64,000 bases of DNA, taken from contig CAZEJU010000001.1 in the NCBI GenBank assembly GCA_964512695.1, positions 7,803 through 71,802 on the forward strand, written 5' to 3'. A program made the translations under genes and the position numbers. Below are positions 25,108 through 49,372 of this stretch, one piece after another. Source of the stretch: an uncultured Gammaproteobacteria bacterium (lineage in GTDB: Bacteria > Patescibacteriota > Microgenomatia > Levybacterales > UBA12049). The notes under the pieces are model-generated. The model made no database searches, was not told the DNA's origin, and saw nothing but the letters and a program-made list of their open reading frames with translations. Within the stretch, counting starts at the first letter, position 1, and the number at the start of each line of letters is the position of its first letter.

Positions 25108-25113
25108 ATTTAT

Positions 25114-28696: not shown

Positions 28697-30556
28697 ATGA
28701 GTTCACATAAAGAATATGCAGGGCAAGCTGCTCTCAAATCCTTAGCTGAAAGATATATTAGAAGGTATGGCTTAAAAGCTGATTTTAATCCCGAAGAGAC
28801 AGGTGGAGTAATTTTCGCTCAAGACGGTACACCACTAAGGCAAGTCCGTGCTCCTTTCTGGAGAGCAGAAAAAGGTGCAAAGGGAACAGGCAGAAAAGAT
28901 ATGCCTAGAGTTTACACTGCTACAAATCCTGACCCGGATAAACCTAACTCAGGATTAGAATTAGAATTCCAAGCTTTCCATGCCATGACAGGAGAAATGG
29001 AACCAGTCATGGATGCAGACCACCCAGTACATCAGGGGTTATTGGAACACAATCGAAAAGCAAAAAATGGACACACTGAAAATAATGGAAATGGACTTGG
29101 AAACGGAAATGGGGTTAATGGATATGTTTTTGTAGAAGACGGCGCTGACTGGGACCATGACTTCCCAACTGGACCTAAAGAAGTAGGATTTAGCCCAGAG
29201 CTAACACGTCATACTTTGGAGGAAAACTTTCCTCCGAATGTAGATTCCGGAACACGAAACAGAGAGACATTATATGGTATTAGCACAGTTGTACAATTAG
29301 CAGAAGCAAATAACACACTTATCTCTCCGTTCTCGACTATACCGCATCGAGATATTACACAAATTGATACGAATCAACATCCATATGTCCAACGCATAGC
29401 GTTCGAACACATGGGTCCCGAAAAAGTTAAACACTTTACAGGTACTTCACTGCAAATTCACGTAGAAATCAAGGATTTAGAGTCAGCTTTACACGCTGCA
29501 AACCGTTGGCAGCTAGTTACACCTATTATGTATGCGGGAACACTTTCAGCACCTTTTATCGCAGGAGAAATAACACCCGATTTACAAGAACGGTATGGTC
29601 AAGTTCCCGACGTGGTTGGCGATCCACTAAAAGAAAGCACATTTGATACTATGACACAAGGACCCCATGAATCATATAGATATTATGGTAGATTAATAGG
29701 ATCACCTTCTGGAGGTGCAATGAGACAGCCTCTACCTGAAACATCTGAAGAATTTTGGTCTGCGGCTAATAATCTTCTAAAATCAGGAGAAAGTCCTTCC
29801 GTGGGTAGAGTAGCAGGACACCATGCAGATTTTCGTATTCGCCCTGACTTGGGACCGTATGGCACAATCGAGTTAGCAGTATTAGATACTGCCGGTGCGC
29901 GCATTCCAAATATCGTAGCCATTCAAGAATTCTCCAGAGCTTTGGGTTGGAAGTTACAGAGACAAGCAGGTAATTGGGAACAAATTATGGAAGATCCTCG
30001 TTTTAAATCGATATTCGGGCAAGCACCTTCTAAGGAAACATTCGAGACTGTTCACTGGAATACTATAGAGGTAGCAAAACATGGAAATAAGGCAATGATT
30101 ACTGGTATGGACGGAGAACAGCATTCTATAGCAGAGTTATGGAGTAAGTTAGTGGAATATGTACAAGAACCTATTGAAGAAACCGGTTATACTGGTTTAC
30201 CGGAAGGTATTATCGAGGTATTAGATAAAGCTTATCAAGACCCATCAGAACTATTTGATGTTTATAAAGACGAAAAAGGAGTTACTTCTGTCAAAGGATT
30301 CTATGAAACCGGAGTCGGAACTATGAGCCAGTGGGCCAGACAACGTGCAGAAGAGTTGAAAGCAAGAGGCTTAGCAGAAAAAGAAGCCATTATCGATACT
30401 ACACTTAATGTAGGCAAAAGCTTTCATGAACATGTAAAGTCAATGACACCCAAAGATCTTAATACTTTATATGTAAGCGCTAACAAGGATGTGGATAAAT
30501 CACCCCAATACAGCGCTAATGGTCAGAATCCATCATACCAAACCACTGCGTCCTAA
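28697..30556 (+). CDS. GCS2/YbdK-like carboxylate-amine ligase family protein
   Basis: Motif order parallels E. coli YbdK: GLELEFQAF; SLQIHVEI (GQHVHVG-like); HHADFRIRPDLGPYGTIELAVLDT (HWDIRP..GTVEVRVMDT-like). Confidence 0.5.
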   Translation: MSSHKEYAGQAALKSLAERYIRRYGLKADFNPEETGGVIFAQDGTPLRQVRAPFWRAEKGAKGTGRKDMPRVYTATNPDPDKPNSGLELEFQAFHAMTGEMEPVMDADHPVHQGLLEHNRKAKNGHTENNGNGLGNGNGVNGYVFVEDGADWDHDFPTGPKEVGFSPELTRHTLEENFPPNVDSGTRNRETLYGISTVVQLAEANNTLISPFSTIPHRDITQIDTNQHPYVQRIAFEHMGPEKVKHFTGTSLQIHVEIKDLESALHAANRWQLVTPIMYAGTLSAPFIAGEITPDLQERYGQVPDVVGDPLKESTFDTMTQGPHESYRYYGRLIGSPSGGAMRQPLPETSEEFWSAANNLLKSGESPSVGRVAGHHADFRIRPDLGPYGTIELAVLDTAGARIPNIVAIQEFSRALGWKLQRQAGNWEQIMEDPRFKSIFGQAPSKETFETVHWNTIEVAKHGNKAMITGMDGEQHSIAELWSKLVEYVQEPIEETGYTGLPEGIIEVLDKAYQDPSELFDVYKDEKGVTSVKGFYETGVGTMSQWARQRAEELKARGLAEKEAIIDTTLNVGKSFHEHVKSMTPKDLNTLYVSANKDVDKSPQYSANGQNPSYQTTAS

Positions 30557-30590
30557 CAAGTATCAACTATTGTTGTGATACAATAACAAC

Positions 30591-31676
30591 ATGATTCAAC
30601 AAGAAAGGCTTCTAAAAACATTCTTCGATCTTGTTTCAATCGATAGTCCTACAGGTGAAGAAGAACGCATTCGTAACGAACTCTCAAATCGTTTGAAAAA
30701 ACTTGGCGCTGAAACAGTGGAAAAAGATACCTATGGTAACCTCATAGCGAAATTCCATGGTGAAGGTGAACCGCTCATGATTAACTGCCATATGGACACT
30801 GTAGAGCCCGGTAGAGGCATAGTACCAATTATGAAAGGTGATAGAGTAGAAACCGACGGGAAGACAATTCTAGCGGGTGATGCAAAGGCAGGTTTAGCGA
30901 TTATCCTCGAAGCCTTAACTTCACTAAAAGAAGAAAATAAAAAACATGTACCTATCGAAATCGTCTTTACTGTAGAGGAGGAAACTGGACTTTATGGAGC
31001 TGTTAACCTCGACTATTCAAAAGTCTCCGCAAAAAAAGGATTTGTTTTTGATGGTTCAAAAGATCCTTGTACCTTAACCACATCAGCACCGGGATATTAT
31101 AGAGTCGATGTTACAATCATAGGAAGAGCGGCTCATGCGGGAGCCGAACCTGAAAAAGGTATTTCAGCTATTAAAATCGCTTCTGATATTATTACGAAGC
31201 TCGAGGTAGGCAGAATTGATGAAGAAACTACGGCAAACGTCGGTATTATAGAAGGCGGAAGCGCCCGGAATGCAGTACCAGAAAAAGCACATTTTAAGGC
31301 AGAAATTCGAAGTAGAAAGCTAGAAAAGCTTGAAAAACATGCAGGTCATTTCCAAGAAGTTTTTGAGGAAGCGATGAAGAAACATCCTGAAGCGAAAATA
31401 GAGATAGACATGCATTTAGAATTTAATCCATATATTTTCGATGAAAACCATCATGTTATTCAGCTTGCGAGTAAAGCGTTAAGCGAACTAGGACAAACAC
31501 CGAAACTTGCACCTTCGAATGGAGGATCCGATGTCAATATTTTTATTTCACACGATATAGAAACAGTGGCTGTAGGAATTGGCGATTATAATGCTCATAC
31601 AACCCGCGAATACGTCGTCATATCTGAAATAGTGTTAGGAGCTAGACTCTGCGAAAAACTCCTTGAGGCGAAGTAA
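30591..31676 (+). CDS. M20 family peptidase, peptidase T (PepT)-like
   Basis: LLKTFFDLVSIDSPTGEE; metal-binding HMDTV, GAVN/DGS region and E-rich catalytic region. Paralog of 39896. Confidence 0.7.
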   Translation: MIQQERLLKTFFDLVSIDSPTGEEERIRNELSNRLKKLGAETVEKDTYGNLIAKFHGEGEPLMINCHMDTVEPGRGIVPIMKGDRVETDGKTILAGDAKAGLAIILEALTSLKEENKKHVPIEIVFTVEEETGLYGAVNLDYSKVSAKKGFVFDGSKDPCTLTTSAPGYYRVDVTIIGRAAHAGAEPEKGISAIKIASDIITKLEVGRIDEETTANVGIIEGGSARNAVPEKAHFKAEIRSRKLEKLEKHAGHFQEVFEEAMKKHPEAKIEIDMHLEFNPYIFDENHHVIQLASKALSELGQTPKLAPSNGGSDVNIFISHDIETVAVGIGDYNAHTTREYVVISEIVLGARLCEKLLEAK

Positions 31677-31759: not shown

Positions 31760-31788
31760 TTGACACGTCATTAACCTCATGGTAGAAT
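31760..31788 (+). promoter_or_regulatory. sigma70 promoter TTGACA-N17-TAGAAT
   Basis: Read directly from the sequence. Confidence 0.6.
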
Positions 31789-31794
31789 TACTAT

Positions 31795-32108
31795 AACATA
31801 CGAATAACAGCGTTGATCCAGTATGGATGGGACTGGGGATTCTCCTTCATTAAAGTTACGCAAGGAGAGCGCTGGGTCTAATCAACCCCGGAGGCGAAAC
31901 CGTAAAAAGATCAGCAACATGTGTCATAGCTGCAGATAAGCACTGATTAAAAGCTGATTCTCGCTGATATAGAGCATGTCATGAATGAGAAGTCCTCCCA
32001 CGCCAAAGCTCCGGAGGATAAAACAAGGTGGCACCGTCCTTAAATAAACGTGGGACCCTTGTAAATAACTACAAAGTAATTTTGTGGTTGTTTACAAGGG
32101 TTTTTTTA
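31795..32108 (+). ncRNA. T-box riboswitch leader (antiterminator AAGG-UGGCACC-GUCC; terminator + T7)
   Basis: AAGGUGGCACCGUCC (~32026-32040) matches the T-box consensus AGGGUGGNACCGCG, including the 7-nt UGGNACC bulge. The 3' strand GGACCCUUG overlaps the 5' arm of the terminator 32057-32108. A candidate Stem I spans GUUGAUC...GAUCAGCAAC. Confidence 0.5.
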
Positions 32109-32120
32109 ATGGTAAAAACT

Positions 32121-33269
32121 ATGAAAGAAGGAGTTATTATACAAGTTGATCCGAGAATACCAGAGCCATATATAACATATATCCGGCAACGAAATGGGAA
32201 TGTCGGCAGAGATATAGCAGATCACCTTGGCCTACCCTATGTAGGAGACAGTCAGGGAGTACAACGTGCAGCTGATTATTATCCTGTACTTGCCAGAACT
32301 GTCACCAGAGAACATGCAAGAGTATTAGGTGCAGAAAATACAAGAGATTTCTATGGTCTTGCAGTTGAAGATTTAAATGTTGTGGGTAAATCTATACTCC
32401 ATCCTTCTATAAGCAGAAGACATCCTTTATTTCATAGAGAACAATTCGCACGAAAAGTCTTAGGTCAAACCCTTCCTGGTATAACCGGTTTCTCTAAAGA
32501 AGATTTATTAGCAGGGTATGAAAATGGTTACGCTGGATCACTGGATCATGCTTTAGATTACGAGCAGTATGGATTACGTGTTAAACTTCCAAATGAATCC
32601 GACGGCGTAGGACAATTTACTATACAAAGCAAGGATGATCTGGTTACTCTTCTAGAAGCTATTGAGGATAAAGATATCCACGAACAAGGACTGGTTCTGG
32701 AAGCTGATGTACAGAAACCTGAGACTATATCAGTCGGATTCGCGAGAATCGGTGATGAACAATTAAGTTTCATAGCCCAACAAAAAGATGCACGTGTGTT
32801 AGTAGATCATAAGGGCAAAACAATAGAGCAGAATAGATATGGTGGGGCATACGTCGTTGTGGCAAAAGGCCCTTTACAGTTACTATGCCAAGCCACGGAA
32901 GCAACTTCGCGTGAGAGATCTGCTGTAGAAAAAACACTGGCGTTTCATGAAGCCTATCAACGCATCTATGATCCTTTAGCTTCGAGATTAAGTTTCGATG
33001 TCATTTTCGGAGAAGGGAAAAACGGTCTCCCACTTGCAGGAATAAGTGACATTACTGGTAGGCTAGGTGGAACGTGTCCAGCACTCATGCAAGCTGCTGA
33101 AGAGTTCAGGAAAAACCCTTCTATTCAAATGGTAGGAACAGAAGTATCTCTTAATTATACTCCCCATGTACGATTTCCCTATGAAGATGAAGCTAAGGTG
33201 TATGTAGACCACCCAACACTCAGACTTACAGCAAGAGTAAACTCAAAACACAGAAGACTCGCAGCATAG
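32121..33269 (+). CDS. ATP-grasp-like protein
   Basis: GLRVKLPNESDGVGQFTIQSKDDL resembles the ATP-grasp central motif, but weakly. Start set at MKEGV downstream of the T-box terminator; the ORF-track start lies inside the leader. Confidence 0.35.
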   Translation: MKEGVIIQVDPRIPEPYITYIRQRNGNVGRDIADHLGLPYVGDSQGVQRAADYYPVLARTVTREHARVLGAENTRDFYGLAVEDLNVVGKSILHPSISRRHPLFHREQFARKVLGQTLPGITGFSKEDLLAGYENGYAGSLDHALDYEQYGLRVKLPNESDGVGQFTIQSKDDLVTLLEAIEDKDIHEQGLVLEADVQKPETISVGFARIGDEQLSFIAQQKDARVLVDHKGKTIEQNRYGGAYVVVAKGPLQLLCQATEATSRERSAVEKTLAFHEAYQRIYDPLASRLSFDVIFGEGKNGLPLAGISDITGRLGGTCPALMQAAEEFRKNPSIQMVGTEVSLNYTPHVRFPYEDEAKVYVDHPTLRLTARVNSKHRRLAA

Positions 33270-33278: not shown

Positions 33279-33307
33279 TTGACATTACACATGGGCTATC
33301 CTATAAT
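33279..33307 (+). promoter_or_regulatory. consensus sigma70 promoter TTGACA-N17-TATAAT
   Basis: Read directly from the sequence. Confidence 0.65.
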
Positions 33308-33314
33308 CATTTAT

Positions 33315-33371
33315 ATGATACGACAAGCAGTAAATTTCTTTTTCTTTTTTACCCCACTCGCGGGGAGGTAA
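33315..33371 (+). promoter_or_regulatory. Phe-rich leader peptide ORF (MIRQAVNFFFFFTPLAGR; five consecutive Phe codons)
   Basis: ATG ATA CGA CAA GCA GTA AAT TTC TTT TTC TTT TTT ACC CCA CTC GCG GGG AGG TAA. Leaderless. Its 3' end runs through the hairpin CCCCACUCGCGGGG, whose GCGGGG can alternatively pair with the CCCCGC of the terminator. Confidence 0.6.
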
Positions 33372-33398
33372 TTTCGTGATCACACGAAATACTCTATA

Positions 33399-33422
33399 CC
33401 CCGCATAAGGCGGGGTTTTTTT
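33399..33422 (+). terminator. intrinsic terminator CCCCGCataagGCGGGG + T7
   Basis: Directly followed by the ATG of the tiny ORF MEEFYGND, then the main start at 33436. Confidence 0.6.
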
Positions 33423-37163: not shown

Positions 37164-37192
37164 TTGACGAACTGTATGACTCATGGTATATT
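37164..37192 (+). promoter_or_regulatory. sigma70-like promoter TTGACG-N17-TATATT
   Basis: Read directly from the sequence. Confidence 0.55.
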
Positions 37193-37202
37193 GCTCAAAT
37201 AT

Positions 37203-37247
37203 ATGAAATCCACTTTTTTAGTTTGTTGTGTTACAACTCTGCTTTAA
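37203..37247 (+). promoter_or_regulatory. leader peptide ORF MKSTFLVCCVTTLL (tandem Cys-Cys, Thr-Thr, Leu-Leu)
   Basis: ATG AAA TCC ACT TTT TTA GTT TGT TGT GTT ACA ACT CTG CTT TAA. Its stop abuts GGGG of the antiterminator, which pairs with CCCC of the terminator. Confidence 0.45.
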
Positions 37248-37274
37248 GGGGTTGTAGTTATCGTGGAATATGCA

Positions 37275-37296
37275 CCCCGCCAAGCGGGGTTTTTTT
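37275..37296 (+). terminator. intrinsic terminator CCCCGCcaaGCGGGG + T7 directly abutting the start codon
   Basis: 6-bp GC stem, 3-nt loop, 7 T, then ATG at 37297. Confidence 0.6.
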
Positions 37297-38289
37297 ATGA
37301 GAAACTTATTAGAATTAGGAATTTTCGAAACATACGGAAATGGTGGAGGAGCAATTACCAAAGATAGAGTATCTCCTCCTATTTATCCAGTAGATGCTAA
37401 TTTAGGTGAATGGAGGATACTAGCAACTGATCATGAAAGAGAATTCCCGGGCGAGCATCTCGAACGTGCTTTTGAAGTGATAAAGCAATGGCAGGAAGTA
37501 TTTCCTCGGGAAGATACCTGGATTAATCGTGCGTATGGTATTCCGTCACCGATTATTAAACTCGATGCAACAATTACTAATAATGAATTACAGGTGTATG
37601 AAGTAGAAGATAGACCAGCAGGAATGGGTTATAGCGAATTAATAAATCCTGACTTACGAACAAATTTTGCTGATATTGTATCTACTTGGCCAGATTTCCG
37701 AGTCGTCGTTTCTCCTCAAAGATCTGGAAATGACGATCATTTATGGGCAAAGCCAGCAGAAGCAGATTGGCATGGTCTAGTTCTCGTCCGGGCAGAACCG
37801 TCTGAAGAAGAATTCCATGCATTACAGCGAAGATCCATAAGTACTCTGCTTACAGAAGGAGACAAATCGTATGGTGAAAAAATGGGTTTATGGAAAAGAG
37901 TTCATACAGCAGATGAGATAGATTTTTCACAAGGTTTTGTCGTCAAGCCCACCCAAGGAAGCAAAGGGAATGGTGTGTATGTATCTTTACCGAAACAATA
38001 CATGAAAGAACATGGGATCGACCCAGGTAGAAATGGCGTAGCTACTGCAGGGAAAATACGAGGTGTAATCGATACTGCAGCAGCAAATGGAGGAGTCTTC
38101 GTACAACAATATCATCCTCCTATGGAAACAGGTATCCCGACCCATCCCTGGGCAGTAAACCGGTTATTCTTCGGGTATGATATGCAAAATGGAGAATGGA
38201 GATATATAGGGGGAACATGGAATGCTCGAAATAATTTGAAAATTCATGGAGCTAGTGATACATTAACTGGCCCGTTAAAAACGGTATAA
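37297..38289 (+). CDS. ATP-grasp-like protein
   Basis: FVVKPTQGSKGNGVYVS and ELQVYEVEDRPAGMG motifs, though in an unusual order. Start placed after the terminator T-run. Confidence 0.35.
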   Translation: MRNLLELGIFETYGNGGGAITKDRVSPPIYPVDANLGEWRILATDHEREFPGEHLERAFEVIKQWQEVFPREDTWINRAYGIPSPIIKLDATITNNELQVYEVEDRPAGMGYSELINPDLRTNFADIVSTWPDFRVVVSPQRSGNDDHLWAKPAEADWHGLVLVRAEPSEEEFHALQRRSISTLLTEGDKSYGEKMGLWKRVHTADEIDFSQGFVVKPTQGSKGNGVYVSLPKQYMKEHGIDPGRNGVATAGKIRGVIDTAAANGGVFVQQYHPPMETGIPTHPWAVNRLFFGYDMQNGEWRYIGGTWNARNNLKIHGASDTLTGPLKTV

Positions 38290-38346
38290 AAAAAATTGAT
38301 TAGATTTTACTTCACTTACCCTCGGTTCGTAAACGTAAATGCTCTC

Positions 38347-38376
38347 TTGACGTCCAAATAGATATAACTCTATAAT
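38347..38376 (+). promoter_or_regulatory. sigma70-like promoter TTGACG-N18-TATAAT
   Basis: Read directly from the sequence. Confidence 0.55.
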
Positions 38377-38390
38377 ACAAAGTGTTCTAT

Positions 38391-38438
38391 ATGAATATCA
38401 TGAATAACAATGGAGCAGTAAAGAAGAACCTCTCGTAA
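38391..38438 (+). promoter_or_regulatory. Asn-rich leader peptide ORF (MNIMNNNGAVKKNLS; 5 Asn, including NNN)
   Basis: ATG AAT ATC ATG AAT AAC AAT GGA GCA GTA AAG AAG AAC CTC TCG TAA. The 3' end overlaps the hairpin CCUCUCguaaGAGGGG, whose 3' arm can pair with the CCCCUUAC of the terminator. Confidence 0.55.
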
Positions 38439-38469
38439 GAGGGGTCTTTCTGTTGTCTGCACAATAGTA

Positions 38470-38492
38470 CCCCTTACAGAAGGGGTTTTTTT
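38470..38492 (+). terminator. intrinsic terminator CCCCTTacagAAGGGG + T7
   Basis: Followed by the tiny ORF MDFLLNQ (38493-38516), then a ~100-nt spacer carrying a GGAGG SD before the 38616 start. Confidence 0.6.
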
Positions 38493-38615
38493 ATGGATTT
38501 TTTGCTGAACCAATAGTTCTACTTAGAAATCCAAATCCTCCAAAAAGCGCTCTTCGAGCCGCAGTTCAAATGAACTAAAGCGGAAAGGAAGCTTAGGAGG
38601 ACAAAGCTTTACATT

Positions 38616-39899
38616 ATGAAAGAAGGACTAAAAGTATTATCACACTCATCTATAGAGGAATATCTATTCGATACTGATGTCGAAGACCGATATTATATTC
38701 CGTGGCGTGCAGCCGCAGAAGCAGCAGCAAGAATCGAACTAGGACAACAAGTTTTGACAATCCTTCCAAAACGTGAAGCTTTTAACGAATACCTCACCCT
38801 TTTACAAATGAAATTACTGGGAGGAAGAAGTATTCCAACGCTGTTTACACCTGATGAAGATTATCTTATGGATACTGATATTAAAAAATATCTTATGGAT
38901 ACTCTTCGTGGCAGATTTAACAGAAGTACCACTATTCATCCCTATCAAGCAACACCTGAATTTTATGATTGGGCGGGGGAGTTAGAACAGAAAGGCGTTA
39001 AAATTTACGCAGATAGAAAACGCAAAGACTTACGTGACTGGTGGGGACATAAAGGAGCATATCATCGATGGATAGATGATCTCGATACTCCCACTCAATT
39101 TGAAGGATTACATTTACCAATACCTCGAGGATACGTGGCTCAAAACCATGGAGAATTACTTGTAGCGAAAAAACTTCTACCAACTGACACTGTTGTGGCA
39201 AAACCAATTTTCGGAGCTGGTGGATTTCAAATAGAGTTCTTAGACGACGATAATATCGATACATATGAATGGCCTACCGACCCCACAACGGAAAAACCCA
39301 TGCCAGTTGCTGTACAAGAAAGACTAAGAATTGGTCGAGATGAATTCGGCGAACGTGTTTTTTCCTACCAGTTTGAGGGCCCACAACCAATGGGACGATT
39401 AACACGACAAATTATGGATCAGGAAACTGGGAAAGTCTGGAGTGGGAATAGAGTACCAGCAGATGTTACACCTGAGTTTGAACGAAGAGCAAAGGATGTA
39501 GTTCATACTTTAGTCATGAAAACAAAACCAAAAGGAGACGGGGGAGTCGATATAGCAGATGTAGATGGAGAACCAGTAATCATCGAAGTAAACGGAGGAA
39601 GGCCAACTGGCGCACATATGCCGAAACGATTTCAACAAGCCTTCGCGCCTGAAGCTCCACATTTCGTATTTCAGAAAGTAGAACCAAACGGATATTCACC
39701 ATTCGATATTTGGGATAGACTCGAAGGAGGAAACTTGCCTCGCACGAATGAAACTCTAGTATTTCAGCGTGAAAGACAACGCGGGGTTTTTCCATTAGTT
39801 TGGTTACCGAACTCTTGGGGAATGCTTGCAAGCTTCGGAGGATCATTCGAAGAAGCAAATAATCAGTTACTCGCAGCTCGTGATAGAATAGGCGTATGA
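38616..39899 (+). CDS. ATP-grasp ligase family protein
   Basis: VVAKPIFGAGGFQIEF (central domain) and EPVIIEVNGGRPTGAHMP (C-domain E.N.RP motif) in canonical order. Confidence 0.5.
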   Translation: MKEGLKVLSHSSIEEYLFDTDVEDRYYIPWRAAAEAAARIELGQQVLTILPKREAFNEYLTLLQMKLLGGRSIPTLFTPDEDYLMDTDIKKYLMDTLRGRFNRSTTIHPYQATPEFYDWAGELEQKGVKIYADRKRKDLRDWWGHKGAYHRWIDDLDTPTQFEGLHLPIPRGYVAQNHGELLVAKKLLPTDTVVAKPIFGAGGFQIEFLDDDNIDTYEWPTDPTTEKPMPVAVQERLRIGRDEFGERVFSYQFEGPQPMGRLTRQIMDQETGKVWSGNRVPADVTPEFERRAKDVVHTLVMKTKPKGDGGVDIADVDGEPVIIEVNGGRPTGAHMPKRFQQAFAPEAPHFVFQKVEPNGYSPFDIWDRLEGGNLPRTNETLVFQRERQRGVFPLVWLPNSWGMLASFGGSFEEANNQLLAARDRIGV

Positions 39900-40966
39900 C
39901 TGAGAAAAGGGTAGTACAAATATTTTTCGATTTAGTAAAAATTGACAGCCCTTCTGGACATGAAGAGAACGTTTTAGAGTATATAGAAGCATATTGCAAA
40001 AAACTCTCACTAAATACACAGAGGGATTCTTATGGAAACCTCATCGTTAAAAAAGAAGGAGTAGGTGAACCACTACTTCTCTGTTCACATGCCGATACAG
40101 TAGAACCAGGGAAAAATATTCAACCACGAATAGAGAACGGAATTATAAAAAGCGATGGTACGACGATACTTGGTGCTGATAATAAATCGTCTATTGCAGC
40201 GATTCTCGAGGCTGTGAAACAATTAGTTGAAGAAAAAAAACACCATAGGCCTCTAGAGCTTGTGTTTACAAAATCTGAAGAAGTTGCTAGCTGGGGAGCA
40301 GTATATCTGGACTACAAACAACTTCAAGCAAAAGAAGGATATACGATAGATAACGCAAATCCTGTAGGAACAATTGTCTACGCGTCTCCTTTTTACTATC
40401 GTTTCGATATTACAGTATTCGGTAAAGATGCCCATGCTTCAAGACCGCATGAAGGAATTCATGCTTTAAAAATCGCTGCAAGCGCCATTCATAAAATAAA
40501 ACTTGGAAAAATTGATACAAATACACTTGCCAATATCGGCATGATCCAATCAGGCCATGTACGCAACACAATTCCAGGTTCAGTAGTGCTTATGGGAGAA
40601 GTACGAAGCTATTCCGATGAGAAAGCTCAAAGGTACTTAAACAAAATTATTGATACATTTAGAAAAACTGCAGAAAAAACGGGAGGATCTATAACGTACG
40701 AAACGCTGAAAGAAAATGCTGGGTATATATATAAAACAAATGATCCCTTTGTAAAAAAAACGATGCAGATTATGAAAAAGATTGGAGTAGAAACGAACTT
40801 AATTAAAACTCTGGGCTGTGCCGATGCAAATGTGATCCAAGAGCATGGAATTAAAATGCTCGACCTGGGCGACGGCTCACGCAGAGCGCATACACTAAAG
40901 GAGTCAATACCGGTAGCACAGTTACAAAGAGTCGTTGAGCTAGTATTAGCTCTTGCTGGAGCATAA
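39896..40966 (+). CDS. M20 family peptidase, PepT-like (paralog of 30591)
   Basis: VVQIFFDLVKIDSPSGHEE; HADTVEPG metal site. Overlaps the stop of 38616 by 4 nt, so the two are translationally coupled. Confidence 0.7.
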   Translation: MTEKRVVQIFFDLVKIDSPSGHEENVLEYIEAYCKKLSLNTQRDSYGNLIVKKEGVGEPLLLCSHADTVEPGKNIQPRIENGIIKSDGTTILGADNKSSIAAILEAVKQLVEEKKHHRPLELVFTKSEEVASWGAVYLDYKQLQAKEGYTIDNANPVGTIVYASPFYYRFDITVFGKDAHASRPHEGIHALKIAASAIHKIKLGKIDTNTLANIGMIQSGHVRNTIPGSVVLMGEVRSYSDEKAQRYLNKIIDTFRKTAEKTGGSITYETLKENAGYIYKTNDPFVKKTMQIMKKIGVETNLIKTLGCADANVIQEHGIKMLDLGDGSRRAHTLKESIPVAQLQRVVELVLALAGA

Positions 40967-41067
40967 AACCATACACTCTTCACCCTCCCTTTTCGAATTT
41001 ACGTGAACACTTCCCGAGGTTTGAATAGAAACCAACCTCCCAGGTTGGCAACTAGTAATTTGAGGAC

Positions 41068-41097
41068 TTGCTTAAGGGAGCGTTTATGCGATATACT
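41068..41097 (+). promoter_or_regulatory. sigma70-like promoter TTGCTT-N18-TATACT
   Basis: Read directly from the sequence. Confidence 0.45.
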
Positions 41098-41106
41098 TTC
41101 TTCAAC

Positions 41107-41154
41107 ATGAGTAAATCAGTTTTCGGAACTACCACTACAACAACCCTTTCCTAA
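41107..41154 (+). promoter_or_regulatory. Thr-rich leader peptide ORF (MSKSVFGTTTTTTLS; six consecutive Thr codons)
   Basis: ATG AGT AAA TCA GTT TTC GGA ACT ACC ACT ACA ACA ACC CTT TCC TAA. Its stop abuts GGGAGGUUG (41155-63), which pairs with CAACCUCC (41180-87), the 5' arm of the terminator. Confidence 0.6.
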
Positions 41155-41182
41155 GGGAGGTTGGCGTGGTATTATTTAACAA

Positions 41183-41204
41183 CCTCCTTAATAGGAGGTT
41201 TTTT
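41183..41204 (+). terminator. intrinsic terminator CCTCCTtaatAGGAGG + T6
   Basis: Perfect 6-bp stem plus a T-run. A ~118-nt spacer follows before the 41323 start. Confidence 0.55.
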
Positions 41205-41322
41205 ATTGGGGAGAACACGTATCCGTCAGCTGAGGGATACCACGATAGAATCCCATGGATTATTGCATGGAATCCTATCGCCCCGGTGTACGTCAGGACT
41301 GAAAGCTGACCACAAATAACAT

Positions 41323-43197: not shown

Positions 43198-44937
43198 ATG
43201 GATAATAACGAAAAATTACAAAACTTACGACACTCAACAGCGCATTTACTTGCGGCTGCAGTCATGGAATTATGGCCTGATACGAAAAGAACAATAGGTC
43301 CTGCGATAGAAACTGGATTTTACTATGACTTCGATTTCGTAAAACCAATCTCAGTGGAAGACCTTCCTAAAATCGAACAAAAAATGCGGGAAATTCTTAA
43401 GTCATGGACAGGATTTATCAAAGAAGAAGTCTCAATAGAAGAAGCAAAAAAGAAAGTAGCAGGAAATGAATATAAACTCGAACTTATAGAAGAATTCGCG
43501 AAAGATAATAAAACCCTTACATTCTATACATCAGGTAATTATGAAGATTTATGTAAAGGCGGTCATGTAGAAAATCCAAAAATGGAAATCGGAGCATTTA
43601 AACTCCTCTCTCTCGCAGGCGCGTACTGGCGGGGAGACGAGAAAAACAAGATGTTAACTCGCATCTATGGTACTGCTTTTCCGACGAAACAAGAATTAGA
43701 AGAGTACCTAACCATGCTTGAGGAAGCGAAAAAACGAGACCATAAAAAATTGGGGAAGGAACTAGATCTCTTTATTTTTTCTCCTCTTGTAGGAGGGGGA
43801 CTTGCACTCTGGACACCCCGGGGGACAATTATTCGTGAAGAATTAGATAATTTTATTTGGCATATAAGAAAAAAGTTCGGTTATCAGAAAGTAACAATTC
43901 CTCATATTACAAAAAAAGATCTCTATGAGACATCCGGACACTGGGAAAAATTTGCAAATGAACTATTTAAAATCCAAACCCGTGAAGAAGATTTATTTGC
44001 GATGAAGCCTATGAATTGTCCTCACCATACACAACTCTACGCTTATAAACCTCGAAGCTACCGAGAGTTGCCACTACGTTATTCAGAAACAACTATGTGC
44101 TATAGAGACGAGCAAAGCGGAGAACTAGCTGGTTTATCCCGAGTTCGTGCTTTTACACAAGACGATGCGCATGTTTTTCTCAGAAAATCGCAAATAGAAG
44201 AAGAATTCTTACGAACTTGGGATATCGTAGATGATTTCTATAAAACTTTTGGCTTTGAGCTGAGAGTAAGGCTCTCACTTCATGATCCTGAACATATGGA
44301 AAAGTATCTAGGCGATGCGGGAATTTGGAAGGATGCTGAATCAAAAATTCGGGCGGTAGCAGAAAAAAGAAAAGCTAATACTTTTGAAGGAATTGGTGAA
44401 GCTGCAATGTATGGACCTAAACTAGACTTTATGACAAAAGATGCTCTTGGACGTGAATGGCAAGTAGCTACCATTCAACTTGATTTAAATCAACCAAAAC
44501 GCTTTGGCTTAACATGTATTAATGAAGAAGGAAAACAAGAAGACATCGTCATGATGCATTGTGCGGTTATGGGATCAATCGAAAGATTTGCTTCGATTTT
44601 AATCGAACATTACGCGGGAGCATTTCCACTCTGGCTTGCGCCAGTTCAAATCGAACTTTTACCAATAGCTGATCGCCATACAGAATATGCCCAATCAGTG
44701 TATAATCAGCTATCTGCAGCCAATATTCGTGTAAATCTTAATACCGAAAAAGCAACACTCCAGGCAAAAATACGTGAGGCTACTTTACAAAAAGTACCAT
44801 TTATGGGTATAATAGGCGATAAGGAAATTGCTGCAGAAGCGATTTCAGTCCGAACAAGAGAAGGAAAAGATGTCGGCCAACAACAGGTTGGTACATTTAT
44901 AACGGAGTTACAGGAAAAAATTGATAAAAAAGAATAG
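43198..44937 (+). CDS. thrS: threonyl-tRNA synthetase (lacking N-terminal TGS domain)
   Basis: HSTAHLLAAAV..GPAIETGFYYDFDF (editing domain); class II motifs; C-terminal anticodon-binding domain. Confidence 0.85.
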   Translation: MDNNEKLQNLRHSTAHLLAAAVMELWPDTKRTIGPAIETGFYYDFDFVKPISVEDLPKIEQKMREILKSWTGFIKEEVSIEEAKKKVAGNEYKLELIEEFAKDNKTLTFYTSGNYEDLCKGGHVENPKMEIGAFKLLSLAGAYWRGDEKNKMLTRIYGTAFPTKQELEEYLTMLEEAKKRDHKKLGKELDLFIFSPLVGGGLALWTPRGTIIREELDNFIWHIRKKFGYQKVTIPHITKKDLYETSGHWEKFANELFKIQTREEDLFAMKPMNCPHHTQLYAYKPRSYRELPLRYSETTMCYRDEQSGELAGLSRVRAFTQDDAHVFLRKSQIEEEFLRTWDIVDDFYKTFGFELRVRLSLHDPEHMEKYLGDAGIWKDAESKIRAVAEKRKANTFEGIGEAAMYGPKLDFMTKDALGREWQVATIQLDLNQPKRFGLTCINEEGKQEDIVMMHCAVMGSIERFASILIEHYAGAFPLWLAPVQIELLPIADRHTEYAQSVYNQLSAANIRVNLNTEKATLQAKIREATLQKVPFMGIIGDKEIAAEAISVRTREGKDVGQQQVGTFITELQEKIDKKE

Positions 44938-45502
44938 ATATCAACAAGAAAATAAAAAGTTTTATCGGACGAATGAGCGGATATTCGCACAAACGCTCAG
45001 GGTTGTCGATTCTGAGGGAAAGCAAATAGGTGTTTTCTCCAAACAAGAAGCGTTAGAAAAAGCGCGAGAAGAAGAGTTAGACCTTGTTGAAATAGCGCCA
45101 CAAGCGCAACCACCTGTAGCAAAAATCATAGATTTCCGAAAATTCCTCTATCAAGAAGAAAAAAAGAAAAAAGAAGAGAAAAAGAAAGCTAAAACCAGTG
45201 ATACAAAAGAAGTTCGACTCGGTCCTTTCATGTCTGACAACGATTTACAGGTCATGATAAACCGATGTAGAGATTTCCTAACAGAAGGAGATAAAGTACG
45301 ATTAGTCGTTAAGTTTCGAGGAAGACAAGTTACTCGATCAGATTTCGGTTTCGGTGTCGTCAAAAAAGTGATAGCAGCCGTTAACGATATTTCAAAAGTC
45401 GATAAAGATGCAAAAATGGAGGGGAGACAAATAGTAGCCGTTCTCTCTCCAGAAAGGAAAAAACAACATGGGCAAGATCAAAGTGAGAAAATCAGCAGCT
45501 AA
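44921..45502 (+). CDS. infC: translation initiation factor IF-3
   Basis: RVVDSEGKQIGV..EALEKAREEELDLVEI..PPVAKIIDFRKF. The start codon is uncertain and may be non-AUG, as usual for infC. Overlaps the thrS end. Confidence 0.8.
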   Translation: MIKKNRYQQENKKFYRTNERIFAQTLRVVDSEGKQIGVFSKQEALEKAREEELDLVEIAPQAQPPVAKIIDFRKFLYQEEKKKKEEKKKAKTSDTKEVRLGPFMSDNDLQVMINRCRDFLTEGDKVRLVVKFRGRQVTRSDFGFGVVKKVIAAVNDISKVDKDAKMEGRQIVAVLSPERKKQHGQDQSEKISS

Positions 45503-45665
45503 ACGTTTTAAAGTTACAAAAACAGGTAAAGTCATGCATGGTTCACAATATAGTAGTCATTTAAAACTACATAAGTCAAAAAGACGACTACGACGACAAA
45601 AAGAACCAACTGCATTAACAGGTGAATTTGCAAAGAAAATTAAAAGAATGCTCGCAGTGGGGTAA
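45468..45665 (+). CDS. rpmI: 50S ribosomal protein L35
   Basis: MGKIKVRKSAAKRFKVTKTGKVM. Confidence 0.85.
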   Translation: MGKIKVRKSAAKRFKVTKTGKVMHGSQYSSHLKLHKSKRRLRRQKEPTALTGEFAKKIKRMLAVG

Positions 45666-45737
45666 CGATTTTCACTGATCAGAAGCGGATTAACACGGAT
45701 CCGCGAAAATCTGTATAGAATCCGTGTAAATCATAAC

Positions 45738-46085
45738 ATGAGAATAAAAAGAGGGATGGTATCCCGAAGAAAACACAACAAACTATTAGGATTAACCAAA
45801 GGGTATCGTGGAACGAAAAGTAAACTCATAAAAGTGGCTCACGAAGCTGCGCTACATGCTGGCGCATACGCATTCCACGGTAGGAAACTTCGTAAACAGA
45901 ATTTCCGATCACTCTGGACTGTCCGTATAAGCGAGGCTTTAAAAACTGAAGACATGTCTTACAGTGTATTCATCAATAAATTAAAAAAGGCCAACATCAC
46001 ACTTGATAGAAAAATTCTCAGTGATCTCGTCGTAAACGATCCAGCCACATTTAAACACATTGTCAATTCGGTAAAAACAGAATAA
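45738..46085 (+). CDS. rplT: 50S ribosomal protein L20
   Basis: MRIKRGMVSRRKHNKLLGLTKGYRGTKSKL. Confidence 0.9.
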   Translation: MRIKRGMVSRRKHNKLLGLTKGYRGTKSKLIKVAHEAALHAGAYAFHGRKLRKQNFRSLWTVRISEALKTEDMSYSVFINKLKKANITLDRKILSDLVVNDPATFKHIVNSVKTE

Positions 46086-46195
46086 ACTCCCATTCTCCAT
46101 TGTCCATCTTCCATTTACCATTTATTCTCATTTATCTCATTTTTTGAATTTATTCTTTTCAATGGAAATGATACCTGGAAAATGGAAAATAAGTA
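46086..46195 (+). repeat. empty IVS-like inverted-repeat element (ccatt-rich arm / aatggaaatgatacctggaaaatggaaaataa arm) immediately upstream of pheS
   Basis: The right arm 46157-46189 is near-identical to 14056-14088. The left arm is a degenerate reverse complement. Only ~20 nt lie between the arms. Confidence 0.5.
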
Positions 46196-47315
46196 TGTTA
46201 TCCTTAAGCCTATGGAAGAGCGATTATTAACAATAAAAAATAATGCACTACCTCTCATATTCGATGCTGAATCACTTAAGGAACTTGAAGCAGCAAGGAT
46301 TCAGATTTTAGGAAAAAATGGAACATTAACTCTTATAATGAAGGAAATAGCGAAAGCTGATCCAGAAGACCGGCCGAGATTCGGAAAGGCAGCAAATGAA
46401 ATAAAAAGTGTTCTTGAAAATGCAATCTCTGAAAAATTATCAGACCTCAACCGTCAGCAGACAGATCAATTCTCCAGCAAAAAAGTAAAATTGGATGTCA
46501 CAGAACCTGGAATCCGGCCGCAGTTAGGGCATCTCCATCTTATTACACAAGCAATTTATGAAATTACTACTATTTTTGAGAAAATAGGTTTTACACGTGT
46601 CCGATACCCTGAAGTAGAGTGGGATTGGTTTGCATTCGAGGCATTAAACTTTCCTGAAAACCACCCAGCCAGGGATGACTGGGAAACTTTTTTTATAAAA
46701 GAAAAACCAGATCCCAAACTCGGTCCTATGCTACTTACTCCACACACCTCATCAGGACAAGTAAGAGAAATGCAAAAACACATGGAACAAAAGTTAAAAG
46801 TCAAAAGTCAAAAGTCAAAAGTTCAAGAAAATGAAGTTAACACAATTAATATTAAAATGTTAAATATTGCGAAGTGTTATCGCCGTCAATCTGATGTATC
46901 CCATACACCTATGTTTCACCAGTTCGAAGGATTGGTCGTAGGAAAGGATATAGCAATTACACATCTAAAAGGAACTTTGGATTACTTCGTAAGATCATAT
47001 TTCGGAGAGAATAGGAAAGCCCGTATTCGACCCTATCATTTTCAATTCACTGAACCTTCATTCGAAGTTGATGTTTCATGTGGGGTTTGTAATGGTAACG
47101 GATGCAGATTATGTAAAGCTGGATGGCTGGAGATGGGCGGAGCAGGTATGGTACACCCTAATGTACTAAAAGCTGGAGGAATAGACCCTAAAGAATATAC
47201 TGGTTTCGCGTTCGGATGGGGAGTAGAAAGAGTACTGATGATGAAAGAAGGAATTGAAATAGATGATTTACGATTGCTGTATTCGAATAAACTAGAATTT
47301 CTTGAACAGTTCTAA
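46182..47315 (+). CDS. pheS: phenylalanyl-tRNA synthetase alpha subunit (with ~19-aa in-frame insertion KLKVKSQKSKVQ...)
   Basis: HTPMFHQFEGL, FTEPSFEVD and GWGVERVLMM class II motifs. The insertion is encoded by the repeat aaaagttaaaagtcaaaagtcaaaagttcaag. Confidence 0.85.
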   Translation: MENKYVILKPMEERLLTIKNNALPLIFDAESLKELEAARIQILGKNGTLTLIMKEIAKADPEDRPRFGKAANEIKSVLENAISEKLSDLNRQQTDQFSSKKVKLDVTEPGIRPQLGHLHLITQAIYEITTIFEKIGFTRVRYPEVEWDWFAFEALNFPENHPARDDWETFFIKEKPDPKLGPMLLTPHTSSGQVREMQKHMEQKLKVKSQKSKVQENEVNTINIKMLNIAKCYRRQSDVSHTPMFHQFEGLVVGKDIAITHLKGTLDYFVRSYFGENRKARIRPYHFQFTEPSFEVDVSCGVCNGNGCRLCKAGWLEMGGAGMVHPNVLKAGGIDPKEYTGFAFGWGVERVLMMKEGIEIDDLRLLYSNKLEFLEQF

Positions 47316-47383
47316 TAAAAATCCTACATCACAAGTGATTGAGTTAGGACTCATAAATGATAACTTTTTAACTATTATAAATT

Positions 47384-49372
47384 ATGAATATTAAAATACT
47401 TGATTCTTGGTTACGGGAGTATGTAAAAACAGATGCGACACCGCAAAAAATCGCTGAGGTTATGTCCTTAACAAGTGTCTCAATAGAAAAAATTGAGAAA
47501 TGGGAAAATGATTATGCCTATGATATTGAAGTAACGACAAACAGACCAGATTTAATGTCTGTAACTGGCTTAGCCAGAGAAGCAGCAGCTGTATTACCAC
47601 ACTTCGGAATACCAGCAACTTTTGAACAACTACATCTGCAGCGTCATCCTGATAAAGCGGCAATCCAAGATAGAATCTCGTCTTCACTCCAGCATGACAA
47701 CAAGGTCAAGTTTGAAATTGAAAACAATCCGGAACTGGTCAATAGAGTGAGTGGCGTTGTGATGGAAGTACAAGTTAAAGATACCCCCAAAGATATTAAA
47801 AAGAGATTGGAAGCTTCAGGAATACGCAGTCTAAATAACCTTATCGATATTACAAATTATGTTATGAGAGTCATCGGACACCCTACGCATGTTTTCGATT
47901 ATGACCGGTTACAATCTCAAAAACTCCGCATTCGGGAATCGAAAAAAGGAGAAAAGATAATAACGCTAGATGGAAAAACATATGAACTACCAGGAGGGGA
48001 CATCATCGCAGTCGATGAAAAGGGAAGAATAGTAGATCTCCTCGGTATCATGGGGCTCGAAAATAGCGTGGTAACTGACGAAACGAAAAGAATTTTATTC
48101 TTCATCGATAATAATGACCCTGAAAGAATGAGAAAAACATCTATGACTTTAGGGATACGTTCTGAAGCAGTACAGCTAAATGAAAAAGCGATTGATCCTC
48201 ATTTAATAGAAGATGCTCTGTATTATGGAATATCCCTGTATGAACAATTCGCAGATGGGAAAATTATCTCAAATATTTTCGATCACTTTCCCAACCAATA
48301 TAAAAAAAAGGTTCTGATCGTTAGTGAAAATCTTATTAATACAGTAATTGGTATTGAAATACCTTTAAATCAAGCTGCTACAATAGTAACTTCTTTAGGA
48401 TTCGATGTAAAAATAGGTAAAGATATTCTTGATATCACCGTACCTTCATTCCGATATAACGATATCAATAATGAAGAAGATATCATCGAGGAAATAGCGC
48501 GTATTTATGGCTACCATAAAATACCATCTGCTTTGCCACCCCTTTCTCCCAGCAATCTAGCTCATTATACAAATGAATTCTACTGGGAACAGCGAATCAA
48601 AGACGCGTTTAAATATTGGGGTTTTTCTGAAGTATATACCTATTCGATGGTAGGAGAAAATCTTTTCGAGGGCGAGTTATCAGAGGCTGTTACTATTCAG
48701 AATCCGCTTACAGAAGATATGGTCTATATGCGGAAAACTCTCATTCCGAATCTTCTACAAGTTATTCACGAAAACAAAACTAGAGAAGAAATTAAAATAT
48801 TCGAAATAGCAAATATTTACAGAAAACAAATAAACAGTTTGCCTCACGAAAAACTACACTTGGCAGGAATCATGAAAAAACCTAATGTTTCTTTCTTCGA
48901 AGTAAAAGGATTATTCGAACAGCTAGCAGAAGATCTTGGAATTAATGGATTAAAATTTAAAGCAATTGATAACGGTAGTACAGGTGCAGAAATATATATA
49001 CATTCAGAAAGAATTGGAGATATTGAAATACTTGATGCGCAAGTCATTGATTTCGAAATAGACTTCGGATTACTTATAGAACATGCTACCGCGAAAAAAA
49101 CCTACGAACCACTCGCGAAGTATCCACCAATAATTGAAGATATGGCTTTTCTACTACCTGATACAGTTTCAATTGGAGAAATAATTGAAACCATAAAAGC
49201 TCAGAATCAACTTATTAAAACAGTAACATTATTGGATAAATACAAAGATACCAGAACCTTTAGAATAACCTACCAAAACCCAGAGAAAAATTTAACATCA
49301 GAAGATGTAACACCAGTACGAGAAAAAATCGAAAAAGTTTTAAAAGAGAAACTTCAAATTCAACTGAAATAA
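47384..49372 (+). CDS. pheT: phenylalanyl-tRNA synthetase beta subunit (short form)
   Basis: N-terminal MNIKILDSWLREYV; B3/4 and B5 domain pattern. Adjacent to pheS. Confidence 0.8.
   Translation: MNIKILDSWLREYVKTDATPQKIAEVMSLTSVSIEKIEKWENDYAYDIEVTTNRPDLMSVTGLAREAAAVLPHFGIPATFEQLHLQRHPDKAAIQDRISSSLQHDNKVKFEIENNPELVNRVSGVVMEVQVKDTPKDIKKRLEASGIRSLNNLIDITNYVMRVIGHPTHVFDYDRLQSQKLRIRESKKGEKIITLDGKTYELPGGDIIAVDEKGRIVDLLGIMGLENSVVTDETKRILFFIDNNDPERMRKTSMTLGIRSEAVQLNEKAIDPHLIEDALYYGISLYEQFADGKIISNIFDHFPNQYKKKVLIVSENLINTVIGIEIPLNQAATIVTSLGFDVKIGKDILDITVPSFRYNDINNEEDIIEEIARIYGYHKIPSALPPLSPSNLAHYTNEFYWEQRIKDAFKYWGFSEVYTYSMVGENLFEGELSEAVTIQNPLTEDMVYMRKTLIPNLLQVIHENKTREEIKIFEIANIYRKQINSLPHEKLHLAGIMKKPNVSFFEVKGLFEQLAEDLGINGLKFKAIDNGSTGAEIYIHSERIGDIEILDAQVIDFEIDFGLLIEHATAKKTYEPLAKYPPIIEDMAFLLPDTVSIGEIIETIKAQNQLIKTVTLLDKYKDTRTFRITYQNPEKNLTSEDVTPVREKIEKVLKEKLQIQLK

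Follow-up and report, generated by a model that had tools for sequence, protein, structure and literature searches.

A conserved leader with invariant lysine codons, a candidate lysyl-tRNA-sensing attenuator, precedes an ATP-grasp ligase and PepT-like peptidase operon in an uncultured bacterium

Introduction

Leader-peptide attenuators can precede aminoacyl-tRNA synthetase genes, as in E. coli pheST/pheM, and L-box riboswitches or T-boxes are the known controls of lysine genes. Comparative studies placed lysine genes under L-box riboswitches and reported leader-peptide attenuators for Trp, His, Thr, Phe, Leu, and Ile/Val, together with candidate Cys leaders and leaders before trpS and leuS (PMC1262725, PMC2659441); the trpS and leuS candidates were described in Streptomyces (PMC1262725). 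In full-text literature searches, we found no described leader-peptide attenuator that reads lysine codons, and none for lysS either. Here, we analyzed a stretch of 64,000 nucleotides, referred to below as the window, from an uncultured bacterium of the Patescibacteriota (GenBank assembly GCA_964512695.1, contig CAZEJU010000001.1, positions 7,803 to 71,802). The element under study is a short leader upstream of an operon encoding an ATP-grasp ligase and a PepT-like M20 metallopeptidase. An earlier note, made from the sequence alone, had described it as an attenuator with an Asn-rich leader peptide and linked the operon to asparagine synthesis. Our results point instead to a ribosome-mediated attenuator that senses lysyl-tRNA through the regulatory codons AAG AAG at positions 11 and 12, a reading to which we give a probability of roughly 0.65.

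Results

The ATP-grasp leader combines a promoter, a short open reading frame, and alternative folds

Directly upstream of the leader lies a sigma-70-type promoter (38347 to 38376, forward strand as for all features of this locus), which consists of a -35 box TTGACG (38347-52), an 18-nt spacer, and a -10 box TATAAT (38371-76). It agrees with the consensus at 11/12 positions and ranked first among the promoter-like sites of the 36-42 kb region. The leader open reading frame (ORF) follows at 38391 to 38438, from an ATG at 38391 to a TAA at 38436-38438, and encodes MNIMNNNGAVKKNLS* (the asterisk marks the stop codon), with 5 Asn in 15 codons. It has no Shine-Dalgarno (SD) sequence. The -10 box and the ATG are just 14 nt apart, and therefore the 5' untranslated region would be about 7 nt long. 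Codons 5-7 are the Asn triplet AAU AAC AAU (38403 to 38411). The proposed regulatory codons, Lys11 AAG and Lys12 AAG (38421-26), lie further downstream and are directly followed by Asn13 AAC (38427-29).

Two predicted hairpins and a terminator follow. Hairpin 1 (segments 1:2, 38422 to 38451, -15.0 kcal/mol) has a lower stem in which 38422-26 pairs with 38447-51 and an upper stem in which ACCUCUC (38428-34) pairs with GAGGGGU (38439-45); its GUAA loop (38435-38) contains the stop codon UAA (38436-38). A spacer hairpin, CUGUUGU-CUGC-ACAAUAG (38450 to 38467), lies between segments 2 and 3. The intrinsic terminator (segments 3:4, 38469 to 38492) is formed by ACCCCUU-ACAG-AAGGGGU (38469-38486) and a run of seven U (U7, 38486-92). 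The competing antiterminator (segments 2:3, 38439 to 38475) pairs GAGGGGU (38439-45) with ACCCCUU (38469-75) over 7 bp around the spacer hairpin, and, with each element folded alone, it reached -15.0 kcal/mol versus -8.3 kcal/mol for the terminator. The fold of the leader surpassed those of 200/200 shuffled sequences (z = -3.99). The minimum-energy fold of the 113-nt leader was a nested alternative with segments 1:4 and 2:3 paired, while shortened versions folded into two separate hairpins; the leader sequence is therefore able to adopt both states. A Rfam scan of the window at gathering thresholds matched tRNAs only, and no leader, riboswitch, or T-box family (Lysine RF00168, T-box RF00230, and the Thr, His, Trp, and Leu leaders) reached its gathering threshold at the leader. 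At permissive thresholds, the top match in 38200-38700 was rimP, with 20 bits against a threshold of 47.

The architecture that the earlier note had read from these letters was borne out: the 15-codon ORF with its 5 Asn is present, it ends inside a hairpin whose 3' arm can pair with the 5' arm of the U7 terminator, and the ORF, both hairpins, and the 2:3 alternative recur in all seven leaders compared below. Some of its details are not shared across the relatives. The GNRA-type loop GUAA exists here, and loop sequences vary among the relatives. The tiny ORF MDFLLNQ* at the T-run (38493 to 38516) can be read in the sequence, is absent from L001, L002, and L004-L007, whose spacers are short or unrelated, and is probably non-functional. 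The ATP-grasp gene does start about 120 nt after the terminator, with GGAGG (38596 to 38600) at the long spacing of 15 nt 5' of its ATG at 38616, and this spacer is likewise a feature that most relatives lack.

The leader is conserved in relatives of the operon

With the ATP-grasp protein, we recovered nine relative loci (L001 to L009). A scan of genome contigs for further relatives gave one locus, and a metagenome profile scan added no new locus. In L008 and L009, the operon lies only 47 nt after the upstream gene and has no leader. The comparison covered seven leaders from six lineages, namely those of the window, L002, L001 (the same as L003), L004, L005, L006, and L007. The ATP-grasp proteins of these loci are 50-80% identical to that of the window (80% for L002).

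All seven leaders retain the promoter, short ORF, hairpin 1, spacer hairpin, and terminator, and in the six others the ATG is placed 6-14 nt after the -10 box. The leader peptides are MNIMNNNGAVKKNLS in the window, MLNTNTNTTVKKNLS in L002, MIVKYAVNNSKKHLS in L001/L003, MKSFIVVNVNKKKLR in L004, MRHQKSIQKLKKQAS in L005, MKNLHLGNKSKKQTLY in L007, and MTMKLTVLVKKSKKNPLMRGFCLG* in L006. Their N-terminal halves diverge freely while the ORF persists, with a length of 15-16 codons in six leaders and 24 in L006. The distance from the ATG to the Lys-Lys pair is 30 nt in 6/7 leaders and 36 nt in the remaining one, and that from the pair to the stop is 9 or 12 nt. For an ATG-started ORF of 8 codons or more to stay open and in frame up to the Lys-Lys pair, the chance was 0.04-0.06 per leader, and the product over the six lineages was 1.8e-8. 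The stop codon in the loop is UAG in place of UAA in L004. In L006 (138-262), a +1 shift beside an A5 run puts the UAA of the loop out of frame, and the ORF extends to 24 codons; with one A less, it would end ...KKTL*, as in the other leaders, and the frame difference could be a true variant or a homopolymer assembly error.

The folds were retained as well. Equivalents of hairpin 1 ranged from -8.5 to -15.0 kcal/mol, and a spacer hairpin of differing sequence was predicted in every relative. Terminators ranged from -7.5 to -10.8 kcal/mol (-3.7 in L005) and antiterminators from -11.8 to -17.7 kcal/mol (-4.9 in the truncated fold of L005), and the antiterminator was more stable than the terminator in each of the seven. 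In L005, the antiterminator pairs GGUGGGU with ACCCAUC and thereby carries a change on both sides (G:C to U:A) relative to the window. The loops of hairpin 1 vary (GUAA, GUAAG, GUUA, UAA, AAU, and CUACUA), so the GNRA motif is not conserved. The most conserved nucleotides are AAGAAG, the hairpin arms, and the U-run. These helices were compared sequence by sequence, as the MAFFT alignment misaligned the helices of L004, L005, and L007 and was not used for counting structure pairs, and a covariance model matched both strands (the hairpins being near-palindromic) as well as paralogous leaders, which left its alignment too mixed for a pair count.

The distance between the U-run and the gene start differs between the leaders. 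It is 7-30 nt in five of them (L001, L004, L005, L006, and L007) and about 90-120 nt in the window and L002, where the two spacers are unrelated in sequence.

Predicted stalling positions coincide with the invariant Lys codons

Directly 5' of hairpin 1, the sequence AAG-AAR encodes Lys-Lys in frame in 7/7 leaders. AAG accounts for 12/14 of these codons, compared with 22% of the Lys codons in the genes of the window, where it is the rarer Lys codon. Codons 8-13 correspond in position to the codon runs of the sister leaders described below; the window leader has GAVKKN there, relatives have NNSKKH, NVNKKK, QKLKKQ, and NKSKKQ, and 2-3 Lys per leader fall in this interval.

The earlier note had taken asparagine as the sensed signal. 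In such a model, stalling at Asn codons, chiefly codons 5-7, would relieve termination of an operon that makes or salvages asparagine. The excess of Asn in the window leader is indeed above chance (P of at least 5 of 14 was 2e-4 with proteome frequencies and 2e-3 with the base composition of the leader), and L002 has 4 Asn. However, this enrichment is not kept in the other lineages, whose leaders have 2, 2, 2, 1, and 0 Asn.

We then asked which positions matter with a masking model, in which no base was allowed to pair as far as 11 nt beyond the first nucleotide of the codon in the A site, and the probability of the terminator stem, P(terminator), was computed from the partition function. Without a ribosome, P(terminator) of the window leader was 0.96. 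With the A site at Asn5-7, hairpin 1 and the terminator remained intact and P(terminator) was still 0.96, so these codons lie outside the effective positions. In contrast, the value fell to 0.27 at V10, 0.03 at K11, 0.12 at K12, and 0.03 at N13, and it was 0.95-0.96 again at L14, S15, and the stop. The Lys-Lys pair lay inside the low-termination positions in 7/7 leaders, partially in L002 (0.43-0.52) and for the second Lys of L007 (0.59). In this in silico equilibrium model, segment 1 is thus masked when the ribosome stands at the Lys-Lys pair, and segment 2 when it has reached the stop.

Asn13 is the single Asn codon of the window leader at an effective position, and the same codon is Asn in L002; elsewhere, codon 13 is His, Lys, Gln, or Gln. 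A minor contribution of Asn13 in the window genome and L002 is compatible with these values. The Asn excess of the two leaders may reflect this minor role or A-rich codons that favor SD-less initiation near the start.

The neighboring genes of the relatives suggest a link of the operon to lysine

The synthetase genes beside the operon in relatives are those for lysine. Every class IIb synthetase that adjoins the ATP-grasp gene is a lysyl-tRNA synthetase (LysRS) above the NCBIfam cut-offs, and the models for the asparaginyl enzyme scored far below theirs. The operon of L007 has a class II LysRS as its third gene, 12 nt after the M20 gene, and a second LysRS lies directly 5' of the leader, so that two class II genes (3216-4826 and 7393-8886) flank the ATP-grasp and M20 genes. 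In L006, a class I (archaeal-type) LysRS (2655-3731) is the third operon gene, 9 nt after the M20 gene. As in L007, a LysRS gene is found directly upstream in L005 and L008/L009.

Furthermore, an aspartate kinase gene is located nearby in L005, L007, and L009. Aspartate kinase leaders with alternating Lys and Thr codons, each followed by a terminator, were found in L005 (MNLELKTKKTKTLQ, 672-771), L007 (MKLTLIVKKTKTTP, about 1360-1456), and L008 (MDLILKNTKKATKTLPLG*, 6300-6415). They look like combined Lys and Thr attenuators, and the clade thus makes regulatory use of Lys codons.

No asnS, asnA, asnB, or gat gene was found beside any of the nine loci, and none of the loci contained a gene related to asparagine. 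Together with the codon counts and the intact terminator at codons 5-7, this makes an asparagine-sensing attenuator unlikely, and the link to asparagine synthesis that the earlier note had drawn from an ATP-grasp enzyme finds no support in the neighboring LysRS genes or in the fold of the enzyme, which is nearest to BesA/PGM1-type ligases (see below).

Sister leaders in the window serve as internal controls

The window holds a series of the same device, with five further leaders that each combine a promoter, an SD-less short ORF with a run of one amino acid, and a terminator, and that each lie before a poorly annotated gene. A Met-run leader, MHYIKVENMMAMMMTS* (ORF start 23771, region 23730-23875), precedes a gene for a 265-aa protein. 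An Ile/Val/Leu leader, MQHTFNSIIVVLLVTH* (ORF start 28570, region 28530-28675), precedes genes for a 619-aa protein and a second PepT-like M20 protein. A Phe leader, MIRQAVNFFFFFTPLAGR (ORF start 33315, region 33280-33422), and a Cys leader, MKSTFLVCCVTTLL (ORF start 37203, region 37164-37297), precede genes for proteins of 566 aa and 330 aa, respectively. Finally, a Thr leader, MSKSVFGTTTTTTLS* (ORF start 41107, region 41060-41205), precedes a gene for a 594-aa protein and then thrS.

When applied to these leaders, the masking folds selected the Thr run G-T6 of MSKSVFGTTTTTTLS (codons 7-13), the Met run NMMAMMM of MHYIKVENMMAMMMTS (codons 8-14), VVLLV of MQHTFNSIIVVLLVTH (codons 10-14), and VCC of MKSTFLVCCVTTLL (codons 7-9), and predicted the Phe leader MIRQAVNFFFFFTPLAGR* poorly. 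The Lys-Lys pair of the ATP-grasp leader (codons 11-12) sits where these Thr, Met, Ile/Val/Leu, and Cys runs are found. When the post-stop segments of all six window leaders were matched against all terminator arms, each paired best with its own arm, and 19/720 permutations reached the observed sum; segment 2 of the ATP-grasp leader gave -11.2 with its own arm, the strongest value in its row and column.

For methionine, the gene behind the leader is informative. The Met-run leader is followed by a gene (23887-24684) with a SAM hydrolase C-terminal domain (PF20257, 2.3e-9), a family described as releasing methionine from S-adenosylmethionine (SAM). Methionine starvation may thus switch on methionine release from SAM through this leader; for Met, the regulatory logic holds.

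The pairing of leader and enzyme is also kept elsewhere. In loci recovered for the 594-aa protein (L012 and L013), a 76%-identical homologue is preceded by MSKSIIITTTTTTLS, a 37%-identical homologue is preceded by the Ile/Val/Leu leader MKFRVLSVIILVLLITA, and the next gene after the latter (566 aa) has the leader MITASTSFGFFFFFTPQMAG*; the leaders lie at 607-704 in L013 and at 5873-5990 and 7831-7945 in L012. The 594-aa family comprises 3 clusters among 5.8e9 proteins. The AlphaFold2 (AF2) model of the 594-aa protein, with a predicted local distance difference test score (pLDDT) of 40.6, was too poor for a fold search, and searches of Protein Data Bank (PDB) sequences with the 594-aa and 330-aa proteins gave no matches.

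The 619-aa protein and the PepT-like M20 protein under the Ile/Val/Leu leader form a second module of a large enzyme and an M20 peptidase (28697-31676). The 619-aa protein has a weak, sub-threshold likeness to carboxylate-amine ligases of the YbdK/GCL type (TIGR02050, 4.5e-6, 26 bits versus a cut-off of 176 bits), and its M20 partner (30591-31676) is 37% identical to the M20 protein of the ATP-grasp operon. Directly after the 594-aa gene controlled by the Thr leader lies a thrS-infC-rpmI-rplT-pheS-pheT cluster (43198-49372), in which no leader-peptide attenuator was evident before pheS.

The operon encodes an ATP-grasp ligase and a PepT-like M20 peptidase

The first gene behind the lysine-codon leader (38616 to 39899, forward strand) encodes an ATP-grasp protein of 427 aa (Pfam ATP-grasp_3, 2.4e-9). 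Its AF2 model had a pLDDT of 83, and the best Foldseek matches were BesA (8yi6), a Streptomyces peptide ligase (8ynd), and PGM1 (3wvq), with E values of 3e-16 to 1e-12 and TM scores of 0.63-0.68. PurK and biotin carboxylases scored behind them. By this ranking, the predicted structure is closest to the amino-acid/peptide ligase type, with a sequence identity to the BesA/8ynd/PGM1-type ligases of 14-16%. The family is small, with 8 clusters among 5.8e9 proteins and the same 8 by profile search; an exhaustive hidden Markov model search added one close relative (P0009), and among PDB sequences the profile gave no more than weak ATP-grasp matches.

The second gene (39896 to 40966, forward strand) overlaps the ATP-grasp stop by 4 nt and encodes a PepT-like M20 metallopeptidase of 356 aa (Pfam Peptidase_M20 and M20_dimer). 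It matched TIGR01883 over residues 5-354 of 356 with 297.6 bits (cut-off 274.25). The score against the [LysW]-lysine hydrolase model was 58.9 bits (cut-off 363), and the protein is not LysK or DapE. The ATP-grasp protein had no match to the LysX-type family, and no gene for a LysW-like small carrier was seen in the loci. We thus rejected membership in the LysX/LysK amino-group-carrier lysine pathway, to which the resemblance is mechanistic only. The two enzymes most likely act in lysine supply, as an amino-acid/peptide ligase and a peptidase, and they may work as a protect/deprotect pair or in lysine salvage.

Kinship of the ATP-grasp family with the 330-aa protein, the DUF3182 protein of the window, and a 449-aa protein of L003 was considered and rejected, as hhalign gave no relationship.

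Other regulatory elements

Several other leaders were met nearby. Upstream of a gene at 56332-57711 and tyrS (57724-58920), a T-box-like leader (window 55853-56072) scored 58.2 bits against the Rfam threshold of 93 and is thus sub-threshold, with E = 3.8e-12. Its T-box core GGUGGUACC is found out of place, at 56122-56130, where it follows a U-run hairpin, and a UAC (Tyr) codon at 55945-47 lies by eye at the specifier place, which fits the tyrS gene downstream.

A 283-nt leader (24826-25108) lies between a promoter and a terminator (CCUCUC-UUUAC-GAGAGG and U7) before a gene for a 584-aa paralogue (26% identity) of the Thr-regulated 594-aa protein. It folds with a minimum free energy of -95.5 kcal/mol (z = -4.07), and neither an ORF with an amino-acid run nor a Rfam match was found in it; it could be an RNA regulator of an undescribed kind. 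Another leader, about 250 nt long (31765-32027), follows a TTGACA/TAGAAT promoter and precedes the gene for the DUF3182 protein (32028-33269), with no Rfam match and no obvious leader peptide. In the relatives, an aromatic-rich leader, MTNSFAYFWFYFTSQPGRKASA*, with a terminator precedes a PfkB-family gene and a gene for 3-deoxy-D-arabino-heptulosonate 7-phosphate (DAHP) synthase (L001 2884-2773 and L003 1929-1818, both on the reverse strand).

Discussion

The elements of the ATP-grasp leader, their conservation, their energetics, and the gene context are the established part of the mechanism that we propose. Transcription would start about 7 nt after TATAAT, and the 15-codon leader would be translated from an almost leaderless AUG. 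If the leader carries no ribosome, or if a ribosome has reached the UAA stop within the hairpin 1 loop, segment 2 (GAGGGGU) would be paired or covered, segments 3:4 would form the terminator, and RNA polymerase would halt at U7. When Lys-tRNA(Lys) is scarce, the ribosome would stall with a Lys codon in the A site, and Asn13 may act likewise in the window genome. The stalled ribosome would hide segment 1 (the AAGAAG lower stem and CCUCUC), and the free segment 2 would pair with segment 3 around the spacer hairpin. The terminator would thereby be blocked and the ATP-grasp and M20 operon, which also carries lysS in relatives, would be transcribed. In this scheme, translation of the leader ORF, stalling at the Lys codons, and the response to lysine are inferred.

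Several observations weigh against a lysine attenuator. There are just two Lys codons, whereas the runs in the sister leaders are longer (5-7), and the A-rich composition of the leader leads one to expect 0.10 Lys per codon. AAGAAG doubles as the lower stem of hairpin 1 and could be kept for its structural role alone. The leader ORF is SD-less, yet the sister leaders with unmistakable runs also lack an SD sequence. The folding model describes an equilibrium, ignores kinetics, and handled the Phe leader poorly. In addition, the terminator of L005 is weak (-3.7 kcal/mol), the loop UAA of L006 is out of frame with an ORF of 24 codons, the sample consists of seven leaders from six lineages, and the window and L002 leaders have a statistically real excess of Asn. 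Finally, the window operon itself holds no recognizable lysine gene and no synthetase gene, and its link to lysine comes from the relatives.

The double role of AAGAAG bears on a further alternative, namely that the leader is a two-hairpin RNA switch read by a ligand, a protein, or a tRNA, and that the short ORF is incidental. The most conserved nucleotides all have RNA-structural roles, and the lack of an SD sequence fits such a switch. However, no Rfam family matched, including the lysine riboswitch and the T-box (the best score being 20 versus 47 bits), and the variable loops and spacers leave no candidate binding pocket; a two-hairpin riboswitch of the guanidine-II type was ruled out by the same lack of loop conservation. 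The ORF keeps its length and frame while the peptide drifts, even where the stop changes from UAA to UAG, and at least five sister leaders of the same architecture have unmistakable single-amino-acid runs. We therefore consider such a switch quite improbable.

Still less probable, to the point of being very unlikely, is the absence of any conditional switch, such that either a separate transcript for a micro-protein or small RNA runs to tandem terminators or a partial terminator acts constitutively, and the ATP-grasp gene has its own promoter in the 120-nt spacer: the spacers of the window and L002 could hold a promoter, and hairpin 1 followed by UCUUUCU also scores as terminator-like, but the 7-30 nt after the U-run in the other five leaders leave no room for one, the two long spacers are unrelated despite 80% identical proteins, and the antiterminator is kept with compensating changes and is stronger than the terminator.

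A leader that reads lysine codons would extend classical attenuation to a new amino acid. In this poorly known lineage, leader peptides of this kind could also act as built-in labels, by which unannotated enzymes with almost no homologues can be matched to an amino acid. They yield hypotheses on the substrates of such enzymes, for example lysine (ATP-grasp and M20 proteins), threonine (594-aa protein), and phenylalanine (566-aa protein). In its widest form, the lysine reading would make this leader the first lysyl-tRNA-sensing attenuator and one of a lineage-wide, amino-acid-specific set (Met, Cys, Lys, Lys/Thr, Thr, Phe, Ile/Val/Leu, and aromatic) that labels unannotatable enzymes, with the ATP-grasp and M20 proteins as an undescribed step of lysine supply. 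We put this forward tentatively and regard it as possible but doubtful. If it were true, the labels would extend to ATP-grasp ligases, to PepT-like peptidases, and to proteins of 566-619 aa that in some cases have a weak likeness to carboxylate-amine ligases. The ATP-grasp and M20 proteins could then protect and deprotect in the manner of LysX/LysK or DapD/DapE, or serve in salvage.

The closest described systems are the attenuators of Enterobacteria, such as thrL, hisL, pheL, trpL, leuL, and ilvL (Rfam Thr_leader RF00506, etc.). The ATP-grasp leader shares with them the promoter, the short ORF with clustered codons, and the 1:2, 2:3, and 3:4 segments, in which segment 1 contains or closely follows the regulatory codons, the stop codon falls between the first two segments, and 3:4 is an intrinsic terminator. 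Unlike them, it has two Lys codons as regulatory codons, an SD-less and nearly leaderless ORF, and an extra spacer hairpin inside the antiterminator, it matches no Rfam leader, and it controls uncharacterized ATP-grasp and M20 genes, not a known biosynthetic operon. Like the attenuators of synthetase genes, the operons of L006 and L007 end in lysS under a leader rich in the codons of its own amino acid, whereas the window operon has no synthetase gene.

In the aminoadipate lysine pathway, LysX and LysK form a protect/deprotect pair. The operon resembles this pair in the order of an ATP-grasp ligase gene and an M20 hydrolase gene, and it differs in that the ligase has no LysX-type match, the M20 protein is PepT-like, and no LysW-like carrier gene was seen. 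With the lysine riboswitch (L-box, RF00168) and the T-box, which act before genes such as lysC (PMC1262725, PMC2659441), the leader would share premature termination in response to lysine. However, it has no aptamer and no Rfam match, is about 100 nt long, and would be read through translation. Aspartate kinase genes in this lineage likewise have leaders with Lys and Thr codons, not L-boxes.

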